A stretch of DNA of 35,229 nt from Peptococcaceae bacterium (GCA_031264885.1 JAISDM010000173.1:1-35229); one strand, 5' to 3'; positions 2,688 to 29,420 are shown, counted from the stretch's first letter. Translations and numbers: made by a program. Notes: a model not told the origin generated them from the sequence alone.

Positions 2688-3641
2688 TTATTTCAGCGTC
2701 TTCTTGAAATAATCCACAACGGCGGTTACGTCATAGCCGTACTTCTTGCGCTGTTCCGGGCCGCTGCCGAATCCGGCGTATACCTGCGGAATCCCCAGCC
2801 GCTTGAACGTCTTGGGAACCACCTTATTGTCCACGAAGAAATCGGATATGGTACTGGCCAGCCCACCGTACATCAGATGATCCTCCAGAACCAGCACATT
2901 CCCGGTCTCATCGACGCACTTTTTGATCAGTTCCTCATCCACAGGCTTGATGCAGTACATATCCGCCACACGCACATCAATGCCCTCGCCTTTCAGGATC
3001 TCGGCGGCGTCATAAGCCTCCCCCACCATCTCCCCATGGCAGAAGATGGTGGCGTCCTTGCCCTCTCTGGCAATCGCGCCTCTGCCGATGCCGAAACTCC
3101 GCGCGTCTTGCTCATACATTACCCGGTCCTTCTTGCCTTCAGCCAGACGCATGAACATGGGACCCTGATGCTCCATGCTCAGGATAAGGATATCCCGGAT
3201 CATCAAAGGATCGCTGATAGAGAACACCGTCATATTCACAAAGGATTTCATAATGGCGATGTCTTCCATCGCGTTGTGGGTGGAACCGCCGCCGGAGGTC
3301 AAACCGCCGCCGGTGCCGATGATGCGCACATTCAGGTTCTGATAGCAGATATCCGTGCGCACCTGTTCGGTGGCCCGCATGGAAAGGAACGGGATCATGC
3401 CCATGACGATGCAGATATTGCCTTCCAGCGCCAGCCCGGCAGCCACGCCCAGGCAATTCGCCTCCGCGATGCCCACATCCACGAAGCGGTCAGGAAATTC
3501 TTTCTTATAGCCGCCCAGCGCCCCGCCGATATCCGGGGTCAACACCCACAAATTATCGTGTTTCGCTCCCAATTCAAGAACCGTGTCGCCAATGACGCTC
3601 CGTCCGGAAAAGAAATCCCCGAAATTCAGTGTGATTGCCAT
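2688..3641 (-). CDS. Transketolase family protein, C-terminal (pyrimidine-binding) subunit
   Basis: 317 aa. It has VDVGIAEANCLGVAAGLA and GGGSTHNAMEDIAIM motifs typical of the transketolase Pyr/C-terminal half. The start overlaps the preceding stop by 1 nt (TAATG). Confidence 0.9.
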   Translation of the reverse strand: MAITLNFGDFFSGRSVIGDTVLELGAKHDNLWVLTPDIGGALGGYKKEFPDRFVDVGIAEANCLGVAAGLALEGNICIVMGMIPFLSMRATEQVRTDICYQNLNVRIIGTGGGLTSGGGSTHNAMEDIAIMKSFVNMTVFSISDPLMIRDILILSMEHQGPMFMRLAEGKKDRVMYEQDARSFGIGRGAIAREGKDATIFCHGEMVGEAYDAAEILKGEGIDVRVADMYCIKPVDEELIKKCVDETGNVLVLEDHLMYGGLASTISDFFVDNKVVPKTFKRLGIPQVYAGFGSGPEQRKKYGYDVTAVVDYFKKTLK

Positions 3642-4504
3642 TATTTTGCACCTCTTTCCTTATCCCACGCGTCGTTTACATCCTTCAGCGCCTTGTTCAT
3701 ATCCTCTTCGCTGAGCATACCCGCGTGCCAGCCGATGTTCCTCTCCATGAACGACACGCCCTTGCCCTTGACGGTATTGGCCACAATCGCCTGAGGCTTA
3801 TCGGTTTCATTCGGCTTCTTCAAATGATCCAAAGCGTTTACGATTTCTTCCATATTATGACCGTCGATTTCCGTCACGTCCCAGCCAAAAGCCTTCCATT
3901 TGTCCGGATAGGGATCCATCTTCATGGATTCCTCAGAGAAAGAAGTCATCATCTGTTTGTTTCTGTCTATGACGCCGATTAAGTTCCCGAGATCTTTGGC
4001 GTGAGCCGCCATCGCGGCCTCCCAGATAGAACCCTCGCAGGTTTCGCCGTCGCCCATGTAGCAGAATACCCTGTGATTCTGTTTCTTTTGTTTGGCCGAA
4101 ATCGCCATGCCCACCGCGATGGAGAGCCCGTGCCCCAGGGAGCCCGAGGAGGTCTCCACCCCCGGCAGCCGCACCTTGCACGGATGCATGCCATACGCGC
4201 TGTCCAGCTTGCCATAGGTCTTCACAATGTCGTCATAATTGAAAAAGCCCTTATACGACATAGCGGTATACATCGCCATCGCGCCGTGACCCTTGCTCAG
4301 TACAAACCGGTCTCTTGTGGGCAGCGCGATATCGGACGAGTCCACGTTCAGCCCGTAATTATAAATCGCGATCATTAAATCGGTCATGGACAGATCGCCC
4401 CCGATATGCAGCACCCCTCCGTAAGTGCCGCAGAGCGTGAGCAATTTGACGCGCATATCGTGAGCCAGTTCCTTCAGATGATAAATTTCCTGTTGCGTTG
4501 CCAT
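3641..4504 (-). CDS. Transketolase family protein, N-terminal (ThDP-binding) subunit
   Basis: 287 aa. Motifs are SKGHGAMAMY, GSLGHGLSIAVGMA and the ThDP/metal motif GDGETCEGSIWEAAMAAHAKDLGNLIGVIDRN. The ribosome-binding site is AAAGGAGG. Confidence 0.9.
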   Translation of the reverse strand: MATQQEIYHLKELAHDMRVKLLTLCGTYGGVLHIGGDLSMTDLMIAIYNYGLNVDSSDIALPTRDRFVLSKGHGAMAMYTAMSYKGFFNYDDIVKTYGKLDSAYGMHPCKVRLPGVETSSGSLGHGLSIAVGMAISAKQKKQNHRVFCYMGDGETCEGSIWEAAMAAHAKDLGNLIGVIDRNKQMMTSFSEESMKMDPYPDKWKAFGWDVTEIDGHNMEEIVNALDHLKKPNETDKPQAIVANTVKGKGVSFMERNIGWHAGMLSEEDMNKALKDVNDAWDKERGAK

Positions 4505-4551
4505 TGACTTGCCTCCTTTGATTCTTTGAATTTAAGATTCTTTAAACAATA

Positions 4552-5601
4552 CTACTCAAGATCCGGATTGCATTTGACCAGAATCTTGGGGTATTTGCCC
4601 GTCATATGAGCGTCAAAAGCCGCCGGAGCGTCGTCCAGGTCAAACACCTTTGAGGTCATATCGTCCAAGTCCAGTCTCCCGATGACCTGAGCGGTACGGC
4701 TAAACGTATATGGGGACACAAAGATGCCGGTCATGGTGACTTCCTTCATGTACAGCATATCCCACATATTCACCGGCATATTGTAATCTCTCGCGTACTG
4801 CGCCACATAAATCAGATTGGCGTAAGGCGCCGCCAGGGCTTGCATCGTCTCCGCCGATTTGGGAACCCCCGAGACCTCAAACAGAATGTCAAAACCGCGT
4901 CCGCCCGTAATCTTCAGCGCTTCCTCCTTGAGATCCTGAGACAAAGGATCAATCGTATGCTTCGCGCCGTACTTGACCGCGATATCCCTTCTGGCGGCGA
5001 TGGGCTCGCTGATGGTCAAATTCGCCGCGCCGTAAAGATTGGCCAGCTGCAGCGTCAAGAGACCGATGGGGCCGCCGCCCAGCACGATGACGTTTTGCCC
5101 GAACTTAATATTGGATTTGTCCATGGCGCGGACAGCGATGGATACCGGTTCCAGAATACATCCGGTCTTCAGCGATACATCGTCCGGCAGCTTCACCGCC
5201 TGCTTCTCATGCCAGATCAGGTATTCGGCCATTCCCGGTTCCCCGCCGCCGTGCCGGCAGAACTGCTCCATGCCGTTGGTGCAATAATAGCAAGTCCCGC
5301 AGGTACTCCTGAAGTTCCCGGATACCCGGTCGCCCACTTTGAATCCGTTGATGTCCGCCTTCGGCCCGACCTCAGCCACCACGCCGGAGATTTCATGACC
5401 CATACCGAAGGGAGCGGGCCTGCCAAAGATACCCTCCACAGAATGGGGATCCGATCCGCAGATGGCGCAATAAGCCACCTTGATCAGAATTTCACCCTCA
5501 TTGAGTTTCCTCAAAGGCATATCGCAGACTTCCACAATCCCCTTCTTCGCCGGGTCCGGATCCTTCAAACTGCCGATCCTTGTCGTCATAACAACCTTCA
5601 T
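4552..5601 (-). CDS. Zinc-dependent alcohol/polyol dehydrogenase (MDR family, sorbitol/threonine-DH-like)
   Basis: 349 aa. Catalytic Zn motifs are CAICGSDPH and GHEISGVV. The structural Zn cysteines are CGTCYYCTNGMEQFC. The Rossmann motif is VLGGGPIG. Confidence 0.85.
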   Translation of the reverse strand: MKVVMTTRIGSLKDPDPAKKGIVEVCDMPLRKLNEGEILIKVAYCAICGSDPHSVEGIFGRPAPFGMGHEISGVVAEVGPKADINGFKVGDRVSGNFRSTCGTCYYCTNGMEQFCRHGGGEPGMAEYLIWHEKQAVKLPDDVSLKTGCILEPVSIAVRAMDKSNIKFGQNVIVLGGGPIGLLTLQLANLYGAANLTISEPIAARRDIAVKYGAKHTIDPLSQDLKEEALKITGGRGFDILFEVSGVPKSAETMQALAAPYANLIYVAQYARDYNMPVNMWDMLYMKEVTMTGIFVSPYTFSRTAQVIGRLDLDDMTSKVFDLDDAPAAFDAHMTGKYPKILVKCNPDLE

Positions 5602-5621
5602 ATGTTTATCCTCCTTTTAAT

Positions 5622-6059
5622 TTAATCCCACAACTCAATCATATTGCCGTCCGGATCCTTAAAAAAGATCCAATGCCCCGGTTCAGTAGGCATGCGCTTC
5701 TTCGGCGGGAAAAAAAACTCGATTCCGTCCGCCTTCATCCGCTCATACAGCTCCGGAATGCTCTCCACCTTAAAGGCCAAGTGATGATAGCCCGTCTTCT
5801 GCCATTCGGCGGGACCCGCTTTTTCCACATTTGAGAATTGAAAAACCTCCAGCACAACGCCGTCTTCCGACTCAAGCATCGCCATATCCGAATAGACGCC
5901 CTCCGGCTGGCGGTACAGCGCATCGCTGTCGCTGATGAATTCCTTGGGGAACCGGTGCGCCATATTCTTCTTAAATCCAAAATACTTCGTGTAAAAATCC
6001 GCGGTTCTGTCAAGATCGGACACAGTCAGGCCAAAGTGCATAAACGTGGTTTTCGCCAT
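5622..6059 (-). CDS. VOC-family protein (glyoxalase/dioxygenase/epimerase fold)
   Basis: MAKTTFMHFGLTVSDLDRTADFY...GYHHLAFKV...FKDPDGNMIELWD is a typical paired beta-alpha-beta-beta-beta VOC signature. I shortened the track ORF (to 6173) because GGAGGA sits 6 nt before the ATG at 6059. The longer form would overlap the MFS gene by 112 nt. Confidence 0.75.
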   Translation of the reverse strand: MAKTTFMHFGLTVSDLDRTADFYTKYFGFKKNMAHRFPKEFISDSDALYRQPEGVYSDMAMLESEDGVVLEVFQFSNVEKAGPAEWQKTGYHHLAFKVESIPELYERMKADGIEFFFPPKKRMPTEPGHWIFFKDPDGNMIELWD

Positions 6060-6061
6060 TT

Positions 6062-7270
6062 TCATTCCTCCTTTTTGAAACTCTGTTTTCTTCCATCGAG
6101 CAAGTGATACGCCAATCCCCCGAGCAGCGCCATAAAAAATCCGGTGAGAAACAGCCCGCGGAACCCGATCCAAGGGATCAGAAGTCCGGCGATCATCGGC
6201 CCCGTCGCGCTGCTCAGATCAATCGAGAAGTAATAGGTGGCGTTCGCGAGCCCCAGCCGGCGCCTGGGTACGATTGAATTCGCGAAAGCCATGGTACCGA
6301 TCTGTATCGTTCCAAAGCCCATTCCGAACACAGCCGCCGCCAGAAGCAGCGTCGCCGCGTGATAACTCTGGCTTAATATCAGAAAACCGGCCGAATACAC
6401 CACAAACGCGGGATACAAAATAAAATTGGGCCCCCTCCTGTCATACAGCTTGCTGACAAAAGGTCTGCTGATCAGAACCACCACCGCGTTCACGATAAAG
6501 TAATAAGCCGCCGCTTCCGTGAGATTGTTCCGGCTGGCAAAGACAGCCATAAACGTCATGATGGCCGCGTTAAACAGCATCAGCAGCATGGTGATCAGAC
6601 CCACCGGAACGACCCTCCGCTCAATGAAGCGATCCAAAAACAGCGTCCCGTCCTCTTCTGGGCGATCCGCCCCCGCCTGTTCTAACGGCGGCCGCTCCAG
6701 ACCCTTCAGCCTCAGAAAAGGCAGGAAGATCATATTGACCGCGGGCAGAACCGCGCCAAAGACAAACACAGCGCCATAATTCCCGCTGTTGGCCAGGTTC
6801 AGGCCCACGAAAGGCCCCAGGGCCGAGGACAGCACCTGAACCAGAGAATAATATCCCAGCCCCTCGCCCCTGCGCGCCTCCGGTATGATATTGGAGATAA
6901 TCGTCAGGTTCGTGTTGGACGTCATGCCATAGGAGACCCCGTGCAGGAACCGGATCACACACAGCAGCACCGCGCTTCCCGCCGCGAAATACCCCATCGT
7001 GACCGTCACAAGCAAAACAAGCCCCACGGACAGCATCCGCTTATATCCCACATAGTTCACAGCCGAAGCCGCGAACAGGCGCGCCGACAGAATCCCCGCG
7101 ATGAACAGCCCGGCCACGAAGCCGGCCTGGGCTTCGGACATATGAAACACATCCAGCGCGTACTTGGGCATAATGGTCAGAAGCGAGAAAAAATTGAGAC
7201 TCATGAAGAAATTGCTGCATGTGATCAGACCGTATTCCCGCGTCCAGAGCTTTTCCCTGATATCCGTCAT
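6062..7270 (-). CDS. MFS transporter
   Basis: Hydrophobic 12-TM-like ORF. The ATG at 7270 (MTDIREKLWTREYG...) is preferred over the track TTG at 7297. The stop TGA overlaps the first in-frame ATG of the VOC ORF (ATGA). Confidence 0.85.
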   Translation of the reverse strand: MTDIREKLWTREYGLITCSNFFMSLNFFSLLTIMPKYALDVFHMSEAQAGFVAGLFIAGILSARLFAASAVNYVGYKRMLSVGLVLLVTVTMGYFAAGSAVLLCVIRFLHGVSYGMTSNTNLTIISNIIPEARRGEGLGYYSLVQVLSSALGPFVGLNLANSGNYGAVFVFGAVLPAVNMIFLPFLRLKGLERPPLEQAGADRPEEDGTLFLDRFIERRVVPVGLITMLLMLFNAAIMTFMAVFASRNNLTEAAAYYFIVNAVVVLISRPFVSKLYDRRGPNFILYPAFVVYSAGFLILSQSYHAATLLLAAAVFGMGFGTIQIGTMAFANSIVPRRRLGLANATYYFSIDLSSATGPMIAGLLIPWIGFRGLFLTGFFMALLGGLAYHLLDGRKQSFKKEE

Positions 7271-7289
7271 AGGCCCGCCGTTTTTCCCT

Positions 7290-8855
7290 TCAATCAAAGC
7301 AGCCCATTCTCCCGGGCGTAAAGATCCGCGCGTCCATCAGCTTCAAATCCTTGCTGACAATGGGCTTAAAGCCCATTTTGCCCAGCACGTCTTTTTCCAG
7401 ATCCATGCCCGGAGCGATTTCAGTCAGCAGCAAGCCTTCCTTCGTCAGCTTGAATACGGCGCGCTCCGTGACAAAGACCGCTTCCCTGCCGTCCGCCATG
7501 GCGAGCTGGCCGCTGTACGTAATCTGAGCGACTTTATCCACGATTTTGGAAATGCTGCCTTCCTGATCGATCACCATCTTGCCGTCCTTGACAGACCCCT
7601 TGAATCCGGACGCGGTAAAAAACATCACAAAAACGGTCTTTTTGCTGCATTGGCTGATGTCCATGAATCCGCCCTGCCCGGAGGGACGCCCGCTCATCAG
7701 GCTGACGTTCACATTGCCTGTCTTGTCAACCTCCGCCGCTCCCAGGAACGCGATGTCCAGTCCGCCTCCATGGTAGAAGTCGAACATGGTGGGATGCGCC
7801 ACGAAGGAGGACGCGTTCAGCGACGCGCCAAAGTCGCTGGGCGGCGTGGGAACGCCTCCGAATGTGCCCAGCTCCAAAGTGAATGTAATCCTGTCCGCGA
7901 CGTTCTCGGTCTCCGCCACCAGGCCTATGCCCGCGCCGACGCCGACCCCCACGTTCACAATCGCCCCCGGACGCAGCTCATAGAGCGCCCGCCGGCACAC
8001 AATATCATCCGGCGTCAACACATCCTTGGGCGGCGGCGCGCTGGCGGCGGGCCGTCTCAATTCGCCGCTGTAATAGGGATTATGCACCTGACCCAATGTC
8101 TGCCGGTGGGTTTCCTCCGGTTTGTCCGCGATCACGACGGCGTCCACAATCTCGCCGGGCACCGCCACATCCTTCGCCTTCAGGGTTCCCCTGGCCGCGA
8201 CCCTCTTGACCTGGGCGATGACCTTGCCGCCGCGGGCCTTGGCGGCCAGCGCCGTCTCCATAATCTCCAGCTTCAGGGCCTCTTCCTCAATGGTGAGATT
8301 CCCGTCCTCGTCCCCGGTGGTCACCCGGATAAACGCCGCGTTGATGGGATGCGCCTTATAAAACAGCCATTCCTCCCCGTCAATCTCCATCAGCCGGACG
8401 ATGTCCTCCTTGGCGGCGGCGCTCATCTTCCCCCCGTCCTGCCTGGGATCGATATAAGTACCCATGCCGATCTTCGTCAAAAGCCCCGGCTGCCTGGCCG
8501 CGCTGGTCCGGTACAGCTGCTGCAGCACCCCCTGGGGCAGGGAATACCCCTCCACCTCGCAGGCCATGATCATCTCCTGTATGGGCCGGCAGGTCATCGG
8601 ATGCGAAGCGACGTAACGCTTCAGCATACCGGGCTGGGCGAATTTGGAATCGCCCATGGTCGGATGAACGGGGATCCCGTGCCCGCACCCCGCGAAAACC
8701 GTCAGCCCCTTGGGATGTCCGGTCTCTTTGTAACGCTCCGCCAAACCGATGGACAGATATTCCGGATACCCCACCATACCGCCTGACACGATCGCGATGG
8801 TATCTCCATCGCTGATCAGCTCCATAGCCTCCCGAAGCCCCATTATTTTGCTCAA
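7290..8855 (-). CDS. Class I acyl-CoA:carboxylate CoA-transferase, propionate CoA-transferase (Pct)-like
   Basis: 521 aa. By eye it is collinear with Clostridium propionicum Pct as I recall it: SDGDT..SGG, IDPRQDGGK, EDIVRLMEIDGEEWLFYKA, VKRVAARGTL..VPGEIVD.VV and the catalytic-Glu region TLELGTFGG. The start is TTG, 6 nt after AAGGAGGG. Confidence 0.9.
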   Translation of the reverse strand: MSKIMGLREAMELISDGDTIAIVSGGMVGYPEYLSIGLAERYKETGHPKGLTVFAGCGHGIPVHPTMGDSKFAQPGMLKRYVASHPMTCRPIQEMIMACEVEGYSLPQGVLQQLYRTSAARQPGLLTKIGMGTYIDPRQDGGKMSAAAKEDIVRLMEIDGEEWLFYKAHPINAAFIRVTTGDEDGNLTIEEEALKLEIMETALAAKARGGKVIAQVKRVAARGTLKAKDVAVPGEIVDAVVIADKPEETHRQTLGQVHNPYYSGELRRPAASAPPPKDVLTPDDIVCRRALYELRPGAIVNVGVGVGAGIGLVAETENVADRITFTLELGTFGGVPTPPSDFGASLNASSFVAHPTMFDFYHGGGLDIAFLGAAEVDKTGNVNVSLMSGRPSGQGGFMDISQCSKKTVFVMFFTASGFKGSVKDGKMVIDQEGSISKIVDKVAQITYSGQLAMADGREAVFVTERAVFKLTKEGLLLTEIAPGMDLEKDVLGKMGFKPIVSKDLKLMDARIFTPGRMGCFD

Positions 8856-8897
8856 ACAAATCCCTCCTTCGCTTACTAATACTTACGTCCGCCCGGG

Positions 8898-10217
8898 CTA
8901 TTCCTCGAATTTCCTCAAGCCCTGGCCTTCCATCCAAGTATCCAGCTGATCCATAAAGCGGCGTTCGTCCAAATCGGTCCGGTCGCCGGGCTGGGAGCCT
9001 TCATAATGCATGACCCGGACGCCGATCTCGCTCAATTGCAGACCCTGTTCCTTCCGGGTAAGGGTGCAGCCCACGCCGCCCCGGTACAGCGGCATCAGCG
9101 CGCCGTTTACCTTGAAGCCCTTGGCGAAATCCGTAATGGCGTTCAGGCGGAAATACTCATCGTCTTTAAACCGGTGCCCCCGGGCTTCCGTCAGCGCGGC
9201 CCGGACAGCGTCCTCCCGGGTTCTGATCTCCGTGCCCGCCGGCCTGGGAATCATCTCTCTGCGGTCCATGGTGCCGTCCGGTTTCAATTCAATCGGCCCG
9301 GCCATCATATGGCTGTATTGCGAACCGACGCAAACCGCCCCGTACTGCTCCATATAGCGGTAATATCTCAAGTAATGCCAGGGGGAGGGATGCGCCTCCA
9401 TCCAGCGGTAACGCTCATTCCCTACGGCCGCGATATGGTTGTCGATCCGCCATTGCAGCTCGTCCGAGAAGGATTTCCAGAAGTCCACCAGTTCGTCCGG
9501 CGCCACCTTGGTCAGCCCTCCCAGCGTGTAGAAGGAATACAGATCCTTCTGCCCCAGGGGGGAGGGGATATTCGTCATGGACTGGGTGACCTTCAGCGCG
9601 TATTCCCCCACCTGCCTGTGCGCCTTGATCGATTCGACAAATTTCTCGTCGTCGAACTCGATTCCGAAGATTCTTTCAATATCGTCAATCACCTTAAGGG
9701 TATTATACACCCGCTCCTCGATCATTTCCACTTCTCTTTGCGGATCCCGCTCGCCCAGGTACATCATCCAGTCGCCGCCCCAGCGGGGAATCGGGGAGAA
9801 GTCCATGCACTGCTGTCCCCGTTTGGTATGCTGGTCGCAGGGATCCGAGAACGGAACGCACATATCCCTCAGCGGGAACGGGCTGTTATCCAGCTGATAA
9901 CCCAGGAACTGAACCCCCCAGCAATTCTGCACATATCCGCAAATCTCACGGCCCCAGCCGCGGATCTCAGAAGCCAATCTGGCCTTGCGGGCAAAGGAAT
10001 CGCTCACACTGGCCATCATGGCGCCCACCGGATTGTCCTCGATGATATTCAGACCCTTGAAGCTCTCGCGCCAATCCACCTCGCCCGTATTGCCGTGCGC
10101 CAGCAGCAGATTCTCCTGCTCCGCCGATTCGTCGATGGATTTCTGCCATCTCGCCCTCAAAGCCTTGGCCCTTCCCCAGATCTCCAGCGGACGGGTCTCC
10201 CATAATTGTTTGCTCAT
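8898..10217 (-). CDS. Benzoyl-CoA reductase / 2-hydroxyacyl-CoA dehydratase family (HGD-D), large subunit
   Basis: Family-typical motifs are EICGYVQNCWG, NIPSPLG, RYRWMEAHPSPW...YGAVCVGSQYSH, GVGCTL and the C-terminal HYEGSQPGDRTDLDERRF. The ATG at 10217 (8 nt after GGAGG) is preferred. The track ATG at 10232 directly abuts the stop of the upstream ATPase. Confidence 0.8.
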   Translation of the reverse strand: MSKQLWETRPLEIWGRAKALRARWQKSIDESAEQENLLLAHGNTGEVDWRESFKGLNIIEDNPVGAMMASVSDSFARKARLASEIRGWGREICGYVQNCWGVQFLGYQLDNSPFPLRDMCVPFSDPCDQHTKRGQQCMDFSPIPRWGGDWMMYLGERDPQREVEMIEERVYNTLKVIDDIERIFGIEFDDEKFVESIKAHRQVGEYALKVTQSMTNIPSPLGQKDLYSFYTLGGLTKVAPDELVDFWKSFSDELQWRIDNHIAAVGNERYRWMEAHPSPWHYLRYYRYMEQYGAVCVGSQYSHMMAGPIELKPDGTMDRREMIPRPAGTEIRTREDAVRAALTEARGHRFKDDEYFRLNAITDFAKGFKVNGALMPLYRGGVGCTLTRKEQGLQLSEIGVRVMHYEGSQPGDRTDLDERRFMDQLDTWMEGQGLRKFEE

Positions 10218-10232
10218 TTTTTTAACCTCCAT

Positions 10233-11009
10233 TCACCTATCGCTCGCTATGACCGCCGCGCCTACGGCACAGCCGTACTGCGCCTCTTCCGGAATGAGGA
10301 AACGGATTCCGGAACGGGCCTTCAATCCATCGACCACCGCAGTGTTTCGGGTCATCCCGCCGATAAAAACCGTGGTCTCTTTCGCAGGCGGAATCTTATC
10401 CTTCAGAATCGCGTTGATCCGGCAAATCACCGTCTGAACCACCGCGCCCGCCACTTCCTTCTTGTGTACGTTCCGGTTCAGCAGTTCCAGCGCGTCCATC
10501 TCCGTAAAAACAGCGCAGCCGTCGTTCACCGTTTTGCCGCCCGCGGCATCTGGCGCCAGCGCGCTCATCTCCGCCAGGGTCATCCCCAGCCTTCTGCCCA
10601 TGTATTTCAGCATAATGCCCAAACCCGCCGAACATTTCTGGTTCAGCACCACTTCCTCGATCTTATCCCCTTCACCCAGGGTCGCCACACGCACCTGATC
10701 GGCGCCCGCGTCCACCACCGAAGTAGCGTTGGGATAGAAGTACCGGGCGGCGCGGGCATCCGCCACAACCTCCACCACACGGTCCCCCGCGAAGGCGACA
10801 TCGTACTTGCCCGCTCCGGTAGCCACCGTTTTGCTCACATCCGCAGCCTGGATCCCGGCCTTGTTCAAAGTCTCTTCCCACAGCTTTTCAGCCGCCCGAC
10901 CGCGGCCGGCCCCTCCGGCCGGCCCCTCGCTTTTGGCCGCGATCTTGCCGTCTTTCAGGATCACAATCTTGATATTTTCCAAACCCACGTCAACGCCGGC
11001 TGTAATCAT
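10233..11009 (-). CDS. BcrAD/BadFG-family ATPase (activator-type), divergent copy (ATPase-2)
   Basis: 258 aa with an ASKHA fold. Motifs are GVDVGLENIK, the cluster-ligand cysteines NQKCSAGLG and NDGCAVFTE, and FIGGMTRN. The phosphate-2 motif is degenerate (VVDAGADQ instead of DxGGQD) and the xCHxxGA motif is missing. The ribosome-binding site GGAGGA lies 7 nt upstream. Confidence 0.85.
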   Translation of the reverse strand: MITAGVDVGLENIKIVILKDGKIAAKSEGPAGGAGRGRAAEKLWEETLNKAGIQAADVSKTVATGAGKYDVAFAGDRVVEVVADARAARYFYPNATSVVDAGADQVRVATLGEGDKIEEVVLNQKCSAGLGIMLKYMGRRLGMTLAEMSALAPDAAGGKTVNDGCAVFTEMDALELLNRNVHKKEVAGAVVQTVICRINAILKDKIPPAKETTVFIGGMTRNTAVVDGLKARSGIRFLIPEEAQYGCAVGAAVIASDR

Positions 11010-11057
11010 TTTTTATTCCTCCTAATCCTCTGATTTCCTCAAAACAAACATCGGTCC

Positions 11058-11243
11058 CCGCGTCTTATCCCCTCTTCCGCAGGGGCGGCGCGGCATTCCC
11101 GCGCCTTATCCCTTTCCGTAGGGGCGGCATTTTGCCGCTCGGGACCGTCCGGAAACGCGCCCTAATTATTACCGGACTTGTCTATCACCCGTCATTCCAG
11201 GTTTGTTTATCCCCCCGTCATTCCGGGCTTGTCCCGGAATCCA
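11058..11243. repeat. Intergenic modular palindromic repeat, locus R2 (inside the BCR/HAD locus)
   Basis: A tandemly duplicated unit of about 40 nt (CTTATCCCCTCTTCCGCAGGGGCGGC... and CTTATCCCTTTCCGTAGGGGCGGCATTTTGCCGC) is followed by the tail GGGACCGTCCGGAAAC. A partial B module and a full B module CCGTCATTCCGGGCTTGTCCCGGAATCC (11216-11242) follow. Confidence 0.8.
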
Positions 11244-11310
11244 AAAATGACAAGATATGATAGCTTCCAGACAGCCTGGCCCGCCCCGGGGATCCCGCCG
11301 CCCCCGCGCC

Positions 11311-12447
11311 TTACGCCTTGCTCCACCCGTACAGCCGGGTCATTCCCGGCTTGATCATATTGATCAGCGCCTCGACGCCCAGCTTCGTTTCCTCATAAGG
11401 CATCGTGCTGTCCCGCTCAAACGTATGATACGGGATATTCCTTTCCCGGAGCAATTTCCACACAGCGTACATATCCGTACCGTGAGGGTGACAGTAAATC
11501 TGCTTGGCGATGATCACACCGTCGGCCTGATAATCCTCAAACAGCTCATAAATACGCTCCGGCCGCCGGCGCCACACATTGTCCTTCAAAGCGCTGTGGG
11601 GCCTTCCCAGATACCGCAGCCCGATGGCCATCAGACGGTCTTTCTGAGGAATCACATTGTTCCAGATATAGGAACTTCCATTGTCCAGCTCATCGATCAC
11701 AATATTGGCGCCCAGGGATTCCACCAGCTTCTCCAGTTCCGCGTCGTAGGTCTCGCTTCCCACCAGCATCAGGCGCACACAGTCGCCGTGAGGCTCGCGG
11801 CTCTCCAGCTCCGGGATCAGTTTTTCCAGTATTTTATTGGCTTCCGCCTTGTCCATGACCTGACATGCCAGAACGATCTCCATCGCCTCAGACCCCAAGA
11901 TGACAGAACGGTCAAACCTTCTCAGCTCATAAACCTGACGCAGCAAATTGCGGTTTGTGTTGTAGACCTCTATGGCGTGATCCAGCGCCTCATCCGTGAT
12001 GGTCTTGCCGAGCCACTCCTCCAGGCGCGTCTTAAACACCCCCATCTCCGAACGCATCACATCCTTGGATTTGCGGCCGTCGGGATAATCGGGCACAAAG
12101 AAATAGTGGCTGAACAGTCCCGGGAAATTGACCAGGGTCGTGGAACACGCGTTGTGCCACCACTGACAGCTTTCAATATCGATCAGGCCGTCCACATAAT
12201 CATACCTGCCGTTCATAAACTGATTCAGCATGTCCCGGGTAGGATAACAGTTGCCGTACATCTGGCGGTCCGTGTTATCATCCGCCTCATGCCGGGCCAG
12301 AATACGGATGGGCAGCGCTCCCGCGGCGTAAAGCAATTCTTCCGGGAAATAAACGTCATAATATCCCACCACTTTGCCGCCTGTGCGCTTCTTCCAATCT
12401 TTGGCGTATTCATGGCGTCCGTCTAATATCTCTTTCAAATTCTCCAT
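11311..12447 (-). CDS. Benzoyl-CoA reductase / 2-hydroxyacyl-CoA dehydratase family (HGD-D), small subunit
   Basis: 378 aa. The N-terminus is typical of the family (GGKVVGYYDVYFPEELLYAAGALP). Conserved Cys positions are ESCQWWHNAC and IYCHPHGTD. The ribosome-binding site GGAGGG lies 7 nt upstream. Confidence 0.8.
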   Translation of the reverse strand: MENLKEILDGRHEYAKDWKKRTGGKVVGYYDVYFPEELLYAAGALPIRILARHEADDNTDRQMYGNCYPTRDMLNQFMNGRYDYVDGLIDIESCQWWHNACSTTLVNFPGLFSHYFFVPDYPDGRKSKDVMRSEMGVFKTRLEEWLGKTITDEALDHAIEVYNTNRNLLRQVYELRRFDRSVILGSEAMEIVLACQVMDKAEANKILEKLIPELESREPHGDCVRLMLVGSETYDAELEKLVESLGANIVIDELDNGSSYIWNNVIPQKDRLMAIGLRYLGRPHSALKDNVWRRRPERIYELFEDYQADGVIIAKQIYCHPHGTDMYAVWKLLRERNIPYHTFERDSTMPYEETKLGVEALINMIKPGMTRLYGWSKA

Positions 12448-12494
12448 TTAGTTTCCCTCCAAAAATATCATTTCGGTTTCTCCTGGAACTCGAA

Positions 12495-13373
12495 TCAAGC
12501 CAGAAGCGCCGCGCCGATGGCGCCGGCCAGCTGAGGATCGTACTCGCTGGTGAGCGCGGCGGCGTCCAGCTCCCTCTCCAGCCTCTTGGTCACGCCTTTG
12601 TTCTTCGCCAAACCGCCCGTGAACGCCAGCTCCTTATACACCTTAATGTCCCCCACATCCAGAGGCGCCAGCTTGCCCACCGTACTCAATATCCTCCAGG
12701 CCACCGCAAAGAGATGCGCGGCGTAAACATCGTTCTCGGTGTAGGCCGCCTCCCTGTAGCCCTCGCGCAGCAAGCCCACCGTCTCCGTGTTGGCAAAGGC
12801 GTAACAGGTGGTGCTGACCGGTTCGGGGTCATTCTCAACCTGAAGGGATTTCTCCCCGATCTCCTGAATGGGTACCTGCAGAATATCACAGATGACCTCG
12901 ATGTCCCTTCCCATTCCGGCGGCACATTTATCATTGGTCTTAAAATCCCGGATCCTGTCCCACTCAAACAGCCGGATCGCTTTGCATGTCTGGCCGCCCA
13001 GATCCACAACCGTGGTCACGGAAGGCCCGAACATAAAGCGGGCGCCCTTGCCATGACATTGGATCTCATCCAGGGTTTTTGCCGCGTACCCGGCGTTCCT
13101 GCTGCCAAACCCGGTGGCCGCCACACTGCCGATGTCCTTCAGCGTCATTCCCGAAGCGCCCATCGCCCCTTGAATCACCGCGTCGGCAGCTTCCCGAAAA
13201 TCCGCCCCCGTGGCAATATTGGCATAACCGAACAGTTGGCCGTCACACAAGATGGCCGCCTGAGCGCTGGTTGTGCCGATATCGACTCCGGCCGTTATTT
13301 TTTTTGCCTTTTTCCAGTCGATCTTCTCAGACACCCACTTGGATTCCGGCCATTTCCAAAACTCCTGCGTCAT
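12495..13373 (-). CDS. BcrAD/BadFG-family ATPase (activator-type), canonical copy (ATPase-1)
   Basis: 292 aa. All HgdC-type motifs are present: GVDIGTTS, EIQCHGKGA, VVDLGGQTCK, NDKCAAGMGR, STTCYAFANTE, FTGGLAKN and AGAIGAAL. It has an N-terminal extension of about 25 aa. The ribosome-binding site is GAGGAGG. Confidence 0.85.
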   Translation of the reverse strand: MTQEFWKWPESKWVSEKIDWKKAKKITAGVDIGTTSAQAAILCDGQLFGYANIATGADFREAADAVIQGAMGASGMTLKDIGSVAATGFGSRNAGYAAKTLDEIQCHGKGARFMFGPSVTTVVDLGGQTCKAIRLFEWDRIRDFKTNDKCAAGMGRDIEVICDILQVPIQEIGEKSLQVENDPEPVSTTCYAFANTETVGLLREGYREAAYTENDVYAAHLFAVAWRILSTVGKLAPLDVGDIKVYKELAFTGGLAKNKGVTKRLERELDAAALTSEYDPQLAGAIGAALLA

Positions 13374-13510
13374 TACAGATACCTCCTCACAGAGTAGTAA
13401 AAAGATTGTGAAATCTATGACACTTCTAATATTTAATTATAGTAATTGTATGGACTGATTTTTATATACAGACAGCAGCTTTTAGAAGCGCAATCTGTCC
13501 TGGTTCTGTT

Positions 13511-14941
13511 CTATACCATTTTTTTCGCCAGATTTCCGACTAATTCGACAGCGTCGAATTCCTTCGCGGTCAGCGCCATGGCGTAACAGAAACGCATACA
13601 GCCGCCGAATTCGCCCCTTTTTGTAAAAATATTTCCCGGCGCCAGCAAAATATGATGCCGCATCGCCTCCGCGAACAGGGCCTCCGCGGATATTTTCCCG
13701 GGCATCGCCACCCATAGATAGGATCCGCCCTCAGGCCGGTACACCGCCGTTCCCTCGGGAAAACTCCGCTCAATGGCGTCGGCCAGCTGTTCACAGTTCT
13801 TTTGATAGACGCGTCTCAGGTTCTTTAAATAGATATGACATTTGCCGGAAGCTATGTACTGGGCGACCGCTTCCTGGCTGGCCCGCATAATCGCGAACGA
13901 ACCCATCCCGTACACATTTCTGATTTTCATGGTATGCTTTCCGGCCGCCACCCATCCCAGCCGGTACCCCGGGCTGATGGTTTTGGAGTAGCTGCTGACA
14001 TAAATCACCGACTCCGGCAGCAGACTCTTCAGCGTAGGCAGCATGCTCCCAAACCTCAGAGGCCCCATCACATCGTCTTCCACCACGATGATGTCGTATT
14101 CCTGGCATATTTCCAAAAGCCTATGCCGGTTCTCCAGCGGCATCAGCGACCCCGTCGGGTTTTGATAATTCGGGGTAACCAATATACACGCGGGCCTTAC
14201 GCCCGTCTCCAGCAGCAATTGCAATTTGTCCACATTCAAGCCGTAAGGCGGCAGCGTCTCAATCTCCATCGAGATCAAGCGCAGCTGCTGAATCAGGCTG
14301 AAGTAGCCGGGGAACCCCGGGCTCTCCATAATCACCAGGTCGCCCGGATTCGTCAGGGCGCTCAATACACTGTGTACGCCTTCCCACGCGCCCGTCGTGT
14401 TAAAAAGCTCCGCCTCAGACACCAGCGTGCCGGAGAATTGGAACATATACCTCGCCGTCATTTTTTCCACCAGACTCGTCGTCTCCGAGGTGGCGGAAGA
14501 AAAATCATAGGTATTGAGCTCCTGAGGCTTCGCCCGGATAATCCGCGTCAGGCACTTGCTCAGCTCCTCATTGGGGAAATACTGATTCGGCGGCGAGAAC
14601 GCCCCCAACTGAATCAAATCCTGGTCACGCCGGATGCTGTTCTTGAAATGCTGCACCTGTATATCGGGAAGAACAGGCTGAATCTGAAGCGGATGGGGAT
14701 AAAACGACGTCTCCTTGGGGGCGGATATTTCCTTCACCGCGTTCAGAATAAAACCCTTCCGCTCCTTGCTCCTTACGAGACCCTTGCGTTCCAGTCTGCA
14801 ATAAGCGTCGTAAACGGTCACATTGCTCACACCCAGATTCTGCGACATCGCCCGAATCGACGGCAGGAAATCACCCGGGCACAGATTGCCCGTGTACACG
14901 CTTTTCATAATAAATTCTATAACGGCCTCATATTTTCTCAT
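13511..14941 (-). CDS. MocR/GabR-type regulator (GntR winged-helix + class I aminotransferase-like PLP domain)
   Basis: 476 aa. The N-terminal GntR HTH is LPSIRAMSQNLGVSNVTVYDAYCRLERKGLV. The PLP-lysine motif is SYSKTISPGYRLGW. GC content is lower than in neighbouring genes. Confidence 0.85.
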   Translation of the reverse strand: MRKYEAVIEFIMKSVYTGNLCPGDFLPSIRAMSQNLGVSNVTVYDAYCRLERKGLVRSKERKGFILNAVKEISAPKETSFYPHPLQIQPVLPDIQVQHFKNSIRRDQDLIQLGAFSPPNQYFPNEELSKCLTRIIRAKPQELNTYDFSSATSETTSLVEKMTARYMFQFSGTLVSEAELFNTTGAWEGVHSVLSALTNPGDLVIMESPGFPGYFSLIQQLRLISMEIETLPPYGLNVDKLQLLLETGVRPACILVTPNYQNPTGSLMPLENRHRLLEICQEYDIIVVEDDVMGPLRFGSMLPTLKSLLPESVIYVSSYSKTISPGYRLGWVAAGKHTMKIRNVYGMGSFAIMRASQEAVAQYIASGKCHIYLKNLRRVYQKNCEQLADAIERSFPEGTAVYRPEGGSYLWVAMPGKISAEALFAEAMRHHILLAPGNIFTKRGEFGGCMRFCYAMALTAKEFDAVELVGNLAKKMV

Positions 14942-14956
14942 GCTTTTACCTCAACA

Positions 14957-15075
14957 CCCGGGCGGCAGAACGCCGCCCCTGCGGTACCGCGAACAACGCG
15001 TCCGCATGGGCTTCAACGCATCTGTAGGGGCGGCATCCTGCCGCCCGCCTCCGACAGACGCAATTCCCAAATTCC
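14957..15075. repeat. Intergenic modular palindromic repeat, locus R3
   Basis: GGGCGGCAGAACGCCGCCCCTGCGGTACCGCGAACAACGCGTCC...CATCTGTAGGGGCGGCATCCTGCCGCCCGCCTCCGACAGACGC. It fills almost the whole 137-bp space between the pfk stop and the MocR start. Confidence 0.8.
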
Positions 15076-25808: not shown

Positions 25809-26663
25809 CTATGACATGAAAACCGCCAGCGAACCCAAGTCACATTTGATCACCGCGTACTTCTCAAGCACGGGACGCTGCCCCCGATACATTTTCGGCG
25901 GCGTAATATCGCAGACATACCCCATCTCCGCGATTTTGGACGCGGCGTTCCCACTGATGATGTTCGCGACCTCGCGCAAAGCCGACTCCATCATGCCGCT
26001 CAGACCGGACGGATCCGTCATGGTCATATGCTGCACCAGACGCAGCGCGGTCACCAGCGGAAACAGAAATTCCGCGCTGCCCGGATGATCCCCCACAATA
26101 CCCACGCTCACACCCAAATCGCTGACCTGACTGCTCGGCGGCGGCGCGCCGGGATCGGTCCGAACCGTCAGATTCAGCATCTGGCCCAGCACCTCACAGG
26201 CGCTCTCCGCGAAACTGCCCACGAACTGATCAGGCCGCGCCTTTTCCCGAACCTGTGGCGCGACCGCCTTGACCGCGCCGGTGATTTTGCCGTCCTCCCC
26301 CACCACATGATAAATCAGCCAGCCGATCAAGGTCCCCCCGAACTGCTGCATGGCCGCCTGACTGTAATTGCTCCCCGCCAGGATTTTTTCATATTCCAAA
26401 ACCGTAGAAACAAAATTCCGGTGCAGCACCTTATGCGCCTCCAGCCCCGCGTAGCCCAGCGAAGCCTGGAGCGCCTCCTCATCGGCAAAATGCTTCACCA
26501 CATAATCCTTCAAAAAAGCCACCGCCTGCGCGCAGGCCGCCGGGCTGTCCGGCCCCTGCCGGCGTATCGTCTCCACCAGCTCATCCGACATCCGGAACAG
26601 TTCCTTATGCTGACCGTCAATCACCTCATTACCCACCGCATACGCGTCTTTCCACATGCCCAT
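25809..26663 (-). CDS. Hemerythrin-domain / CheX-like phosphatase-domain fusion protein
   Basis: The N-terminal part (about 135 aa) carries bacteriohemerythrin ligand motifs: IDGQHKELF, HFADEE, HKVLHRNF and WLIYHVVGED. The C-terminal part (about 140 aa) resembles CheX/CheC and has SALREVANIISG...ITPP. That matches the phosphatase motif (D/S)xxxExxN-x(~21)-P. Confidence 0.75.
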   Translation of the reverse strand: MGMWKDAYAVGNEVIDGQHKELFRMSDELVETIRRQGPDSPAACAQAVAFLKDYVVKHFADEEALQASLGYAGLEAHKVLHRNFVSTVLEYEKILAGSNYSQAAMQQFGGTLIGWLIYHVVGEDGKITGAVKAVAPQVREKARPDQFVGSFAESACEVLGQMLNLTVRTDPGAPPPSSQVSDLGVSVGIVGDHPGSAEFLFPLVTALRLVQHMTMTDPSGLSGMMESALREVANIISGNAASKIAEMGYVCDITPPKMYRGQRPVLEKYAVIKCDLGSLAVFMS

Positions 26664-27624: not shown

Positions 27625-27790
27625 CCCCCGTCATTCCGGGCTTGTCCCGGAATCCAGGTCCTTCTTTTTGTCATTCCGGATCAAGCCCGGAATAACAACA
27701 CAACGGCAAAACACCCCCCCACGGTACCGCAACAGCGCATCCGTAGGGGCGGCATCCTGCCGCCCGCCTCCGTCAAACGCGAATTTCCCC
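27625..27790. repeat. Intergenic modular palindromic repeat, locus R6
   Basis: Two B modules (27628-27656 and 27669-27694) are followed by ACGGTACCGCAACAGCGCATCCGTAGGGGCGGCATCCTGCCGCCCGCCTCCGTCAAACGC. Confidence 0.85.
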
Positions 27791-27898
27791 GAATTGAAGA
27801 AATTTTCGCAATTCAGTATTAAATCCGCCTCAATTATGATATATTATTCACATGTATACAGACCAAGATATCACATCCAGACGAGAGGAGAATTAAAA

Positions 27899-29419
27899 AT
27901 GGTAAAAACAGTGGACGTCGTGGTGGCAGGCGCCGGCAACGCCGGGCTGGCCGCCGCCGCCGCCACAGCCAAGATGGGCTTATCAACCCTCTTAGTGGAG
28001 CGGCATAATATCCCCGGCGGCAGCGCAAGCAGTTTCCGGCGGGGCCGCTTCGAATTCGAGCCCTCGCTGCACGAGCTGGCCGGCTACGGCTCACCCGGCA
28101 ATCCCGGCGACGTGCGGGATATCTTCAGCGACCTGGGCGTCAACGTCGAGATGCTGGAGGTAAAAGACGCCTTCCGCACAATCGTTACCGGGCCGGAAGG
28201 GTATGACCTGGTGATGCCGGTGGGCATCGAGAACTTCGTGTACGCGATGGAGAAAGCGGTTCCCGGCAGCGCCGAAAGCACGGTCAATTTCTTTAAACTG
28301 GCGGGCGACGTAGGCCGGGCGCTGGGATACCTCTCCTCGGGCCAGCCGGATCCCGCTGTTTTGCAAAAAGATCACATCAATTTTATGAAGGTCGCCAACC
28401 TCCCCGCCGGTCCGGTGCTGGACGCGCTGAACATGCCCCCAAAAGCCCAGCAGATCATTATGACCTACTGGCCTTACATGGGCACCCCCCGCGGCCAGTT
28501 CTCCTTCGTGCTTTACTCCCTCATGGTGTACCGCTACATCTCAATGAGCGCCTATATACCCAAAAACCGCTCCCATGATATGTCGCTGGCACTGGAACAG
28601 GCCATCCGCGATCACGGAGGCGAGGTGTGGTACAACACCGAGATCAGCGAACTCCTGGTGAAAGACGGCCGCTGTTATGGCGTGAGAACCCGGGACGGCA
28701 GCGAGATCCATTCAAAGCAAGTGATCGCTAATTTCTATCCGGACCGCGCCTTTGCGGGCATGACGCCCCCGAACGAGACGCCGAAACAGGAAGTAAAACG
28801 CGCCAACGCGCGCACCCTGGGCATGAGCGGATACTGCGTATATTTGGGACTCGACAAATCGCCGGAAGAACTCGGCATCAAAGACTACAGCGTTTTTATC
28901 AACACCACCCCCGATTCGGACGAACAGCAAAAAGGCATGTATACCCTGGACAATAACGACTTTTTCATCATGAACTGCCTGAACATAGACAATCCGGGAT
29001 GCAGCCCGGAGGGAACCAGCATTCTGTGGGGCACACAGCTGTTTGCGCCCGGCGTGTGGGATCAGCTGAAGCCCGCCGAATACAAAGCCGTCAAAAACCG
29101 TGTGGCCAAAAAAATCATCACTGCCTACGAACGCGCCGCCGGCGTCAAAATATCCGACTGTATCGAGGAAATATCGACGGCGACCCCGGTCACATTCGCG
29201 CGCTACCTCGATACCCCCGACGGCTCCATCTACGGTTATCACGGGGTAAAATGGGACGCGATGCTGCCGCGTATCATGGGTATGCGCGGCGAGCAATGGA
29301 TACAAGGACTGCGTTTCGCGGGCGGTCACGGCGCCCGTACCATGGGCTACAGCTCCACATATATCAACGGCTATCAAACGGCGCAGCTTGCGGCGCAAGA
29401 GATAAAGGAGGGACGCTGA
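27899..29419 (+). CDS. FAD-dependent oxidoreductase, phytoene desaturase/CrtI-RetSat-like family
   Basis: The ATG at 27899 follows GAGAGGAG. The dinucleotide fold is VDVVVAGAGNAGLAAAAATAKMGLSTLLVERHNIPGG. The C-terminus is CrtI-like (GLRFAGGHGARTMGYSS). The track extension back to 27668 runs through repeat R6 and was rejected. Confidence 0.8.
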   Translation: MVKTVDVVVAGAGNAGLAAAAATAKMGLSTLLVERHNIPGGSASSFRRGRFEFEPSLHELAGYGSPGNPGDVRDIFSDLGVNVEMLEVKDAFRTIVTGPEGYDLVMPVGIENFVYAMEKAVPGSAESTVNFFKLAGDVGRALGYLSSGQPDPAVLQKDHINFMKVANLPAGPVLDALNMPPKAQQIIMTYWPYMGTPRGQFSFVLYSLMVYRYISMSAYIPKNRSHDMSLALEQAIRDHGGEVWYNTEISELLVKDGRCYGVRTRDGSEIHSKQVIANFYPDRAFAGMTPPNETPKQEVKRANARTLGMSGYCVYLGLDKSPEELGIKDYSVFINTTPDSDEQQKGMYTLDNNDFFIMNCLNIDNPGCSPEGTSILWGTQLFAPGVWDQLKPAEYKAVKNRVAKKIITAYERAAGVKISDCIEEISTATPVTFARYLDTPDGSIYGYHGVKWDAMLPRIMGMRGEQWIQGLRFAGGHGARTMGYSSTYINGYQTAQLAAQEIKEGR

Positions 29420-29420
29420 A

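Follow-up and report, generated by a model that had tools for sequence, protein, structure and literature searches.

Positions 2688 to 14941 of a 35,229-nucleotide stretch of DNA from a Peptococcaceae bacterium (GCA_031264885.1 JAISDM010000173.1:1-35229; the whole stretch is called the window here) hold eleven genes, all on the minus strand and arranged head to tail, and open reading frame (ORF) calling and matches to Pfam and NCBIfam bore out the eleven codirectional genes listed in an earlier note on this DNA. Judged by sequence, the array consists of two modules: module A contains a MocR-type regulator, a four-subunit enzyme resembling benzoyl-CoA reductase (BCR; subunits Q, N, P, and O), and a CoA-transferase, and module B contains a VOC protein, a zinc-dependent alcohol dehydrogenase (ADH), and a transketolase (TK) split into two halves (TK-N and TK-C), with a gene for an MFS transporter between the modules. 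The reading that we tentatively prefer, at slightly less than an even chance, is that the array is a composite catabolic operon in which two evolutionarily separate modules, joined repeatedly in termite-gut anaerobes, act on one class of plant-derived compound. The pairing of A and B probably marks an undescribed oxygen-free breakdown route for a plant-derived acid. The eleven genes, from the regulator onward, are as follows.

13511 to 14941, minus strand: MocR-type regulator with a GntR winged helix-turn-helix domain and a fold-type-I aminotransferase domain (Pfam GntR, Aminotran_1_2)
12495 to 13373, minus strand: BzdQ-like ATPase (Q), putative electron-activating subunit 1 (BcrAD_BadFG)
11311 to 12447, minus strand: BzdN-like subunit (N) (HGD-D)
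10233 to 11009, minus strand: second ATPase (P), BzdP/BcrD-like, with degenerate nucleotide motifs (BcrAD_BadFG)
8898 to 10232, minus strand: BzdO-like putative catalytic subunit (O) (HGD-D)
7290 to 8855, minus strand: fused family-I CoA-transferase of the YdiF/FadX/Pct type, 521 amino acids (CoA_trans; PDB 2AHU, YdiF, 407.7 bits)
6062 to 7270, minus strand: MFS transporter (MFS_1; no specific NCBIfam family)
5622 to 6059, minus strand: VOC/glyoxalase-fold protein of about 146 amino acids (Pfam Glyoxalase)
4552 to 5601, minus strand: zinc-dependent ADH of the medium-chain (MDR) type, DesC-like (ADH_N, ADH_zinc_N)
3641 to 4504, minus strand: N-terminal half of the split TK, with the PP domain for thiamine diphosphate (ThDP) (Transketolase_N)
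2688 to 3641, minus strand: C-terminal half of the split TK, with the Pyr and C domains (Transket_pyr, Transketolase_C)

Each module was observed by itself in other loci. Module A lacking TK genes was found as MocR-Q-N-O-P-CoA-transferase in the comparison locus L137 (MocR, 49% identity; CoA-transferase, 66%) and as MocR-TRAP transporter-Q-N-O-P in L128 (MocR, 49%). When metagenomes were scanned with TK-N, 80 loci with 60 to 68% identity were recovered; TK-C was present in 74 of them and an ADH in 44, the latter in two classes (48 to 54% and 36 to 43% identity), and the VOC family of the array (36 to 48% identity) occurred in 11 loci, with a second VOC family in 11 more. The TK-ADH-VOC unit is self-contained between housekeeping genes in L034, L044, L052, and L098. 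Elsewhere module B is accompanied by genes for AraC, GPH-type MFS_2 transporters, short-chain dehydrogenases/reductases (SDRs), a DUF1537 kinase, and PdxA-family proteins, and these usual neighbors agree with the view of the earlier note that the TK/ADH half is a sugar-type set.

The two modules, or parts of them, also recur side by side. Additional gene orders were found in L053, where O is followed by TK-N; in L058, where an ATPase gene is followed by TK-N, TK-C, and VOC; and in L056, where the TK genes lie near a CoA-transferase gene. In three metagenome-assembled genomes (MAGs; G008, G009, and G010), an ADH gene 54% identical to that of the array stands directly upstream of Q-N-O-P and faces SDR, thiolase, and CoA-transferase genes, and in a quick tree these BCR-adjacent ADHs grouped together with the TK-adjacent ADH of L034 (100% in the SH-like approximate likelihood ratio test). 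G009 additionally has TK genes 5.5 kb from a Q-N-O-P set. Among 88 genomes of the class, TK-N of the module B type was found only in G009, G010, and G000 (the genome of the window), each of which carries an expansion of BCR-like sets; the corresponding class-level search with O was run at a threshold of 1e-200 and covers the closest orthologs only. The locus with the closest BCR ortholog (L025, 76% identity) gives weak support, as its last ORF matches TK-N over residues 131 to 251 only, after an unrelated N terminus of 300 residues. The occurrence of module A, or of BCR genes, beside module B or a B-type ADH in several arrangements in termite-gut relatives makes a functional link likely. The two halves do occur together elsewhere, and the idea of the earlier note thereby survives its own comparative-genomics check, which it would have failed had the halves never co-occurred. 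The combination is as unusual as that note had supposed: the literature on clusters of BCR with TK, on split TKs, and on termite BCRs yielded no description of a pathway that unites the two.

The recurrence has to be weighed against the explanation that the modules are metabolically unrelated and that a nonphosphorylative polyol/ketose unit (MFS-VOC-ADH-TK) landed by chance downstream of an aryl-CoA module, to be transcribed by read-through or from an internal promoter of its own. This explanation, which we regard as unlikely but still as a serious contender, draws on the solitary occurrence of B between housekeeping genes or with the sugar-type neighbors named above, on the solitary occurrence of A in L137 and L128, and on the abundance of BCR-like sets, of which G000 has at least 12 and G009 has 17 to 18. 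It can also point to the MFS gene, which had no homologue in any comparison locus of the A or B type, and to a hairpin resembling a terminator where the CoA-transferase gene ends. Chance insertion does not readily account for at least three different A-B gene orders together with the ADH-Q-N-O-P arrangement in three MAGs, nor for the ADHs of both contexts forming one tight clade. Moreover, the BCR-like sets with 1-kb margins cover an estimated 2% or so of G000, so that repeated direct abutment by chance is unlikely, and the gap between the CoA-transferase and MFS genes is just 19 nucleotides.

Several observations count against a composite operon and explain our restraint in proposing it. Only 3 of the 80 TK loci contain BCR-like or CoA-transferase genes (77 lack such a partner), and most A modules likewise have no B partner, which means that neither module requires the other. 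Few lineages show the adjacencies, namely termite-gut bacteria and one biogas contig with the partial TK-like match, and their genomes are crowded with BCR-like sets; since these lineages are few and mutually related, the adjacencies are support and not proof. The terminator-like hairpin (7317 to 7302; GCCCGGGAGAATGGGC followed by a T-rich tail) falls within the final codons of the gene for the CoA-transferase, precisely where modules A and B meet. The cluster contains no gene for a hydratase, hydrolase, thiolase, or aldehyde dehydrogenase that would join the two chemistries. Finally, with three of the six double-cubane ligands present in N and with Asn aligned to Glu65 of BzdO, arene reduction in the style of BzdNO is not assured.

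The closest known counterpart of the four-subunit enzyme is BzdNOPQ, the class I BCR of Aromatoleum sp. CIB (PDB 8S02; PMC11971306), which likewise has two HGD-D subunits and two BcrAD_BadFG ATPases and gave the best match to Q, N, and O both among solved structures and in NCBIfam. Against solved structures, N scored 217.9 bits with BzdN (8S02_B), 104.7 with MbdN, and 77.9 with HadC, and O scored 154.9 bits with BzdO (8S02_A) versus 34.9 with HadB. The earlier note had treated the HGD-D proteins as dehydratase-type, an assignment that these scores contradict, and a dehydratase with an activator is also at odds with the presence of two different ATPase genes, which share only 26% identity. By sequence comparison, Q-N-P-O is a Bzd-type, BCR-like four-subunit enzyme and not a dehydratase plus activator. 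It is also no orthodox BCR, as Q, N, and O all fall below the equivalog cutoffs (270 versus 380.2 bits for Q against TIGR03192, bzdQ; 232.7 versus 453.8 for N against TIGR03190; and 162.2 versus 448.6 for O against TIGR03191) and N has three of the six cysteines. The enzyme is therefore BCR-like in sequence and subunit makeup but resembles 2-hydroxyacyl-CoA dehydratases (HADs) in its likely iron-sulfur content.

Reference residues of the clusters and active site were taken from the BzdNO structure paper (PMC11971306) and mapped by HMMER alignment. Cys36, Cys73, Cys100, Cys263, Cys293, and Cys327 of BzdN correspond to D31, C67, C94, D255, S285, and C319 of N, so that C67 (shifted by 1), C94, and C319 are kept. 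Across 36 N homologues the cysteines split cleanly: the Clostridial, termite-gut, or biogas proteins have three to four, and the Chloroflexi proteins always have six. When seven cysteine positions were scored in N homologues including those of L114 to L126, all of the Chloroflexi proteins carried the same six (C67, C94, C255, C259, C285, and C319), and the Clostridial proteins had three to four of the seven. The O subunit keeps the equivalents of BzdO Cys95, Cys128, and His131 as C98, C132, and H135, and the third cluster cysteine (Cys380 in BzdO) is displaced by 3 residues to C389. Glu65 of BzdO aligns with N67 of O, which is part of an E65-D66-N67 motif. In 42 O homologues, C98, C132, H135, C389, W54, and the E65-D66-N67 motif were all invariant. 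A further observation on O-like genes comes from L129 (G009:C2, 7635 to 16255), where three consecutive copies with no detectable N-like partner lie upstream of a complete Q-N-O-P set.

The two ATPases differ in their nucleotide sites. Q has intact phosphate motifs (DIGTTS and DLGGQ) and both cluster cysteines, whereas in P the motifs DIGTTS and DLGGQT are replaced by DVGLEN and DAGADQ, with both cluster cysteines kept. These degenerate motifs suggest a Q/P heterodimer with one working nucleotide site. The degenerate motifs of P set the array apart from BzdNOPQ, as do the loss of N cysteines throughout the Clostridial branch, the Asn at the Glu65 position in an invariant motif, the use of a CoA-transferase in place of a ligase, the gene order Q-N-P-O, and the number of paralogous sets per genome (at least 12) in a bacterium of the termite gut that belongs to a small class of Bacillota.

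Activation by a CoA-transferase is typical of 2-hydroxy-acid fermentations, and the array has such an enzyme. This feature is one of those that could be taken to mean that the radical enzyme is after all a 2-hydroxyacyl-CoA dehydratase, acting on a CoA ester derived from some imported compound, be it a polyol, a sugar acid, or a hydroaromatic acid such as a 1-hydroxy acid of the quinate type, with ADH, VOC, and TK preparing or degrading the polyhydroxylated skeleton. The three cluster cysteines of N are as expected for a HadC-type beta subunit with a single cluster, versus six in BzdN (PMC11971306); O, when aligned with BzdO, does not conserve the catalytic Glu65; and a close homologue (L001) lies beside genes for a DHDPS-type aldolase, a DGOK kinase, a 2-hydroxyacid dehydrogenase, and an ADH. 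In these respects the array resembles HadBC with HadI, the (R)-2-hydroxyisocaproyl-CoA dehydratase system (PDB 3O3M), which belongs to the same BCR/HAD radical superfamily, has a three-cysteine second subunit, and is paired with a CoA-transferase. However, both HGD-D subunits are far nearer BzdO and BzdN than HadB and HadC, and the invariant His135 matches His131 of BzdO, whereas HadB has Ala. The operon includes, by translational coupling, two distinct ATPase genes, as in stoichiometric BCRs, where a single catalytic activator gene would be expected for a dehydratase, and the closest paralogues have neighboring reductases of the old yellow enzyme (OYE) type, which would suit the reduction of an arene or a dienoyl-CoA. 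Altogether, we consider the dehydratase explanation improbable and keep to a BCR-like enzyme in a composite operon.

The surroundings of related sets were compared for hints of the substrate. CoA-transferase homologues with 54 to 69% identity adjoin BCR-like sets in L002, L025, L030, L056, L123, L137, and L138. A CoA-transferase is combined with TRAP transporters in L002 and L138 and with an ABC transporter in L030, and the neighbors in these three loci include Amidohydro_2, URO-D, OYE-type reductase, and DAPG hydrolase genes; an own-genome paralogue on contig C132 also adjoins an OYE-type reductase. The neighbors of close paralogues, namely OYE-type enzymes, Amidohydro_2 decarboxylases, URO-D proteins, and DAPG hydrolase, suggest aromatic metabolism. 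The DAPG-hydrolase-family protein and OYE-type (Oxidored_FMN) reductases lie at 11676 to 12533 in L138, 7578 to 9599 in L030, and 5381 to 6388 in L134, and they hint at phenolic or dienoyl-CoA chemistry.

The regulator has the N-terminal GntR domain, the aminotransferase-fold domain, and the lysine motif of MocR/GabR-type proteins, with its best NCBIfam match, a PdxR-like family, at 238 bits (below the cutoff of 320). The lysine of the SYSK or SFSK motif is presumably the residue that carries pyridoxal 5'-phosphate (PLP). SYSK of the array's protein aligns with SFSK of LysN (PDB 2EGY). The association with a MocR regulator proposed in the earlier note was strengthened by the MocR genes of 49% identity that precede the orthologous Q-N-O-P sets in L128 and L137. 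The regulator is separated from Q by the following spacer, which is predicted to be the likely operon promoter and MocR target.

13374 to 13510, minus strand: AT-rich spacer of 137 nucleotides with a perfect TATAAT, a 7-nucleotide inverted repeat (CTTCTAA/TTAGAAG, 52 nucleotides apart), and GAGGAGG before the ATG

In module B, TK-N has the GDG...N ThDP motif and the histidines of HIGG, KGHG, HP, and WHAG, and the TK also keeps GIAEAN with the cofactor-activating Glu. The positions of His469 and Asp477 in the yeast enzyme are occupied by G111 and G118, here and in 52 of 54 relatives, and in at least 50 of the 54 family members the canonical His and Asp give way to a conserved glycine-rich loop (GTGGGLTSGGGSTHN). 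The canonical pair is retained by the genome's own ordinary TK on contig C218. The equivalent of Arg528 is ambiguous, as the HMMER and MAFFT alignments place it differently. The roles given to these residues (ThDP motif, activating Glu, donor-side histidines, and distal His/Asp) are those of the yeast and Escherichia coli TK literature. The retained ThDP and donor residues together with the glycine loop fit a ketol-cleaving enzyme for a nonphosphorylated substrate. The apulose-4-phosphate TK of D-apiose catabolism and the sulfo-TK SqwGH act on phosphorylated or sulfonated sugars. Their routes resemble the array in that a catabolic operon combines a split TK with genes for dehydrogenases and transporters, but the array has glycines for His469 and Asp477 and no kinase in the cluster. 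The best PDB match of TK-C was the split TK 6YAJ (188 bits).

A further parallel is the desABCD unit of Clostridium scindens, in which DesC is encoded with a transporter and a split TK whose action on cortisol is to cleave off the ketol side chain (PMC12065433). The best solved relative of the array's ADH (4OH1, 202 bits) is DesC itself, the 20-alpha-hydroxysteroid dehydrogenase of C. scindens (an identification made in a 2026 paper). By layout and ADH similarity, the array shares with desABCD the adjacent split TK pair, the zinc-dependent MDR dehydrogenase, and the transporter gene, and the formation of a ketol by an ADH followed by ThDP-dependent cleavage fits the retained residues of the array's TK. 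In contrast to desABCD, the array has a VOC gene and comes from a termite-gut/sediment habitat, which makes steroids unlikely substrates. True desAB operons are also rare, with 44 among 2.23 million genomes (PMC12876203); the TK family of the array, by contrast, is common in metagenomes.

The VOC protein scored 29.3 bits against the methylmalonyl-CoA epimerase model TIGR03081, far below the cutoff of 114.95, and its module normally lacks any CoA enzyme, so that the CoA-ester epimerase role suggested for it in the earlier note is unlikely. The closest VOC orthologues in relatives (66% identity, G009:C13 and G008:C44) are in other contexts. In L131 (G009:C13, 7057 to 11738), for example, the VOC gene has on one side a gene for an IorA-like 2-oxoacid:ferredoxin oxidoreductase and on the other a radical SAM gene, after which comes a gene for a LigB/AMMECR1 fusion, and no TK or ADH genes are near.

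The sequences show directly to which families the genes belong, which residues are conserved, that the modules occur independently, and that they repeatedly adjoin; from these observations we infer the substrate, the order of steps, cotranscription, and all of the chemistry in the following scheme. The CoA-transferase would activate a carboxylic acid at no ATP cost, and the Q/P ATPase heterodimer would spend ATP to drive low-potential electrons via the iron-sulfur cluster of N to the [4Fe-4S]-OH2 site of O. There, the thioester substrate, most likely with an aromatic or hydroaromatic ring, would be reduced or stripped of a substituent by ketyl-type chemistry. Module B, perhaps with the MFS protein as importer, would operate like the desABCD steroid desmolase unit: the ADH, presumably NAD dependent, would oxidize a secondary alcohol to an alpha-ketol, the VOC protein would isomerize or epimerize the alpha-ketol via a metal-bound enediolate, and the noncanonical TK would cut the HOCH2-CO-C(OH) bond and transfer the resulting C2 fragment to an aldose as acceptor. 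Together with PLP, MocR may sense an amino or carbonyl effector and thereby control the promoter in the 137-nucleotide spacer. The earlier note had combined the genes differently, into a single pathway from a polyol to a 2-hydroxyacyl-CoA, which the two-module anatomy does not favor; of its interpretation, the unusual mix, the sugar-like TK/ADH context, the MocR link, and the co-occurrence of the halves stand, and the dehydratase identity and the epimerase role of VOC are not supported.

Older feeding studies reportedly found that anaerobic termite-gut microbes modified the side chains of lignin-derived aromatics and not the rings. Against this background, a more specific proposal, which we put forward only as a long shot, is that single-cubane Clostridial BCR-like enzymes and the desmolase-like TK/ADH/VOC unit remove ketol or glycerol-type side chains from phenylpropanoid acids of lignin origin and afterwards, with the ring present as a CoA ester, dearomatize or dehydroxylate it, all independently of oxygen, in termite-gut bacteria. 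If true, side-chain stripping with ring attack would place anaerobic ring attack in a habitat where oxygen has been thought necessary. More generally, a dozen ATP-driven BCR-like sets in one gut bacterium suggest that plant aromatics or hydroaromatics undergo anoxic reactions not yet described, and one of the sets is apparently connected with a MocR sensor, with a CoA-transferase, and with a C-C cleaving unit of the desmolase type. Two enzyme targets emerge: a branch of BCR-like enzymes, standing between benzoyl-CoA reductases and 2-hydroxyacyl-CoA dehydratases, in which the electron-storing subunit has only half of the double-cubane ligands, and a widespread TK subfamily lacking the canonical distal sugar-binding residues.

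Direct reading of the sequence confirmed each junction distance given in the earlier note. The stop codon of the second ATPase gene abuts the start of O (TGAATG), the CoA-transferase gene is separated from the MFS ATG (7270) by the 19 nucleotides mentioned above, VOC and ADH are 20 nucleotides apart, ADH and TK-N are 47 nucleotides apart, and TK-N and TK-C overlap by 1 nucleotide. The stop codon of the MFS gene and the first ATG of VOC overlap (ATGA), which leaves no space for a separate promoter, and a better-placed VOC start lies 6 nucleotides downstream, 9 nucleotides after an AGGAGG. With this overlap and the short gap before the MFS gene, there is little room for separate control. Most genes have ribosome-binding sites of the AGGAGG type, and the MFS ATG at 7270 has a weak GAAGGGA only. 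Codirection alone is weak evidence for an operon, since the first 27.5 kb or so of the window have their genes exclusively on the minus strand, and these include the housekeeping block ffh-rimM-trmD-rplS. Consensus scans for promoters and for terminators performed no better than on shuffled sequence (for terminators, 19 found versus 16.9 expected, the hairpin at 7317 to 7302 being one of the 19).

Two further features, both rich in repeats, interrupt and end the array.

11010 to 11310, no strand assigned: GC-rich, repeat-filled gap of 301 nucleotides between N and the second ATPase gene, interrupting the enzyme genes
2314 to 2649, no strand assigned: repeat-built pseudo-ORF of 111 amino acids, without a Pfam match, at the end of the array

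The gap contains no ORF of note, and no terminator-like site was called in it. Its GC-rich motifs (e.g., GCCGCCCCT) recur in a repeat-bearing stretch upstream of MocR (14950 to 15060), and both regions share such motifs with the pseudo-ORF. The pseudo-ORF was rejected as a twelfth gene, as pieces of it match more than 100 contigs of the genome and represent a GC-rich dispersed repeat. The gene order in the array is Q-N-[repeat]-P-O, whereas homologous loci have Q-N-O-P or its circular permutation N-O-P-Q (more than 20 cases), and the order O-Q-N-P was found once (L002/L003). Thus, P and O appear to have been swapped next to the repeat insertion.

The stretch was found only in DNA runs of termite-gut metagenomes, with no RNA run among the matches for 3700 to 13600, and the nearest genomes with orthologues are MAGs of termite-gut 'Clostridiales'. 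The paralogous BCR-like sets of G000 are spread over contigs that include C74, C81, C132, C145, C154, C191, C268, C290, C305, and C306. A search of the other 36 related genomes returned no BCR-like sets, apart from one weak match in G003, and three related MAGs have 8 to 18 sets each, with G009 at the upper end. Outside the array, the window contains a gene for a hemerythrin-CheX fusion at 25809 to 26663 and, at 27668 to 30617, a gene for an FAD oxidoreductase followed by one for an FNR-like 2Fe-2S reductase (Pfam).

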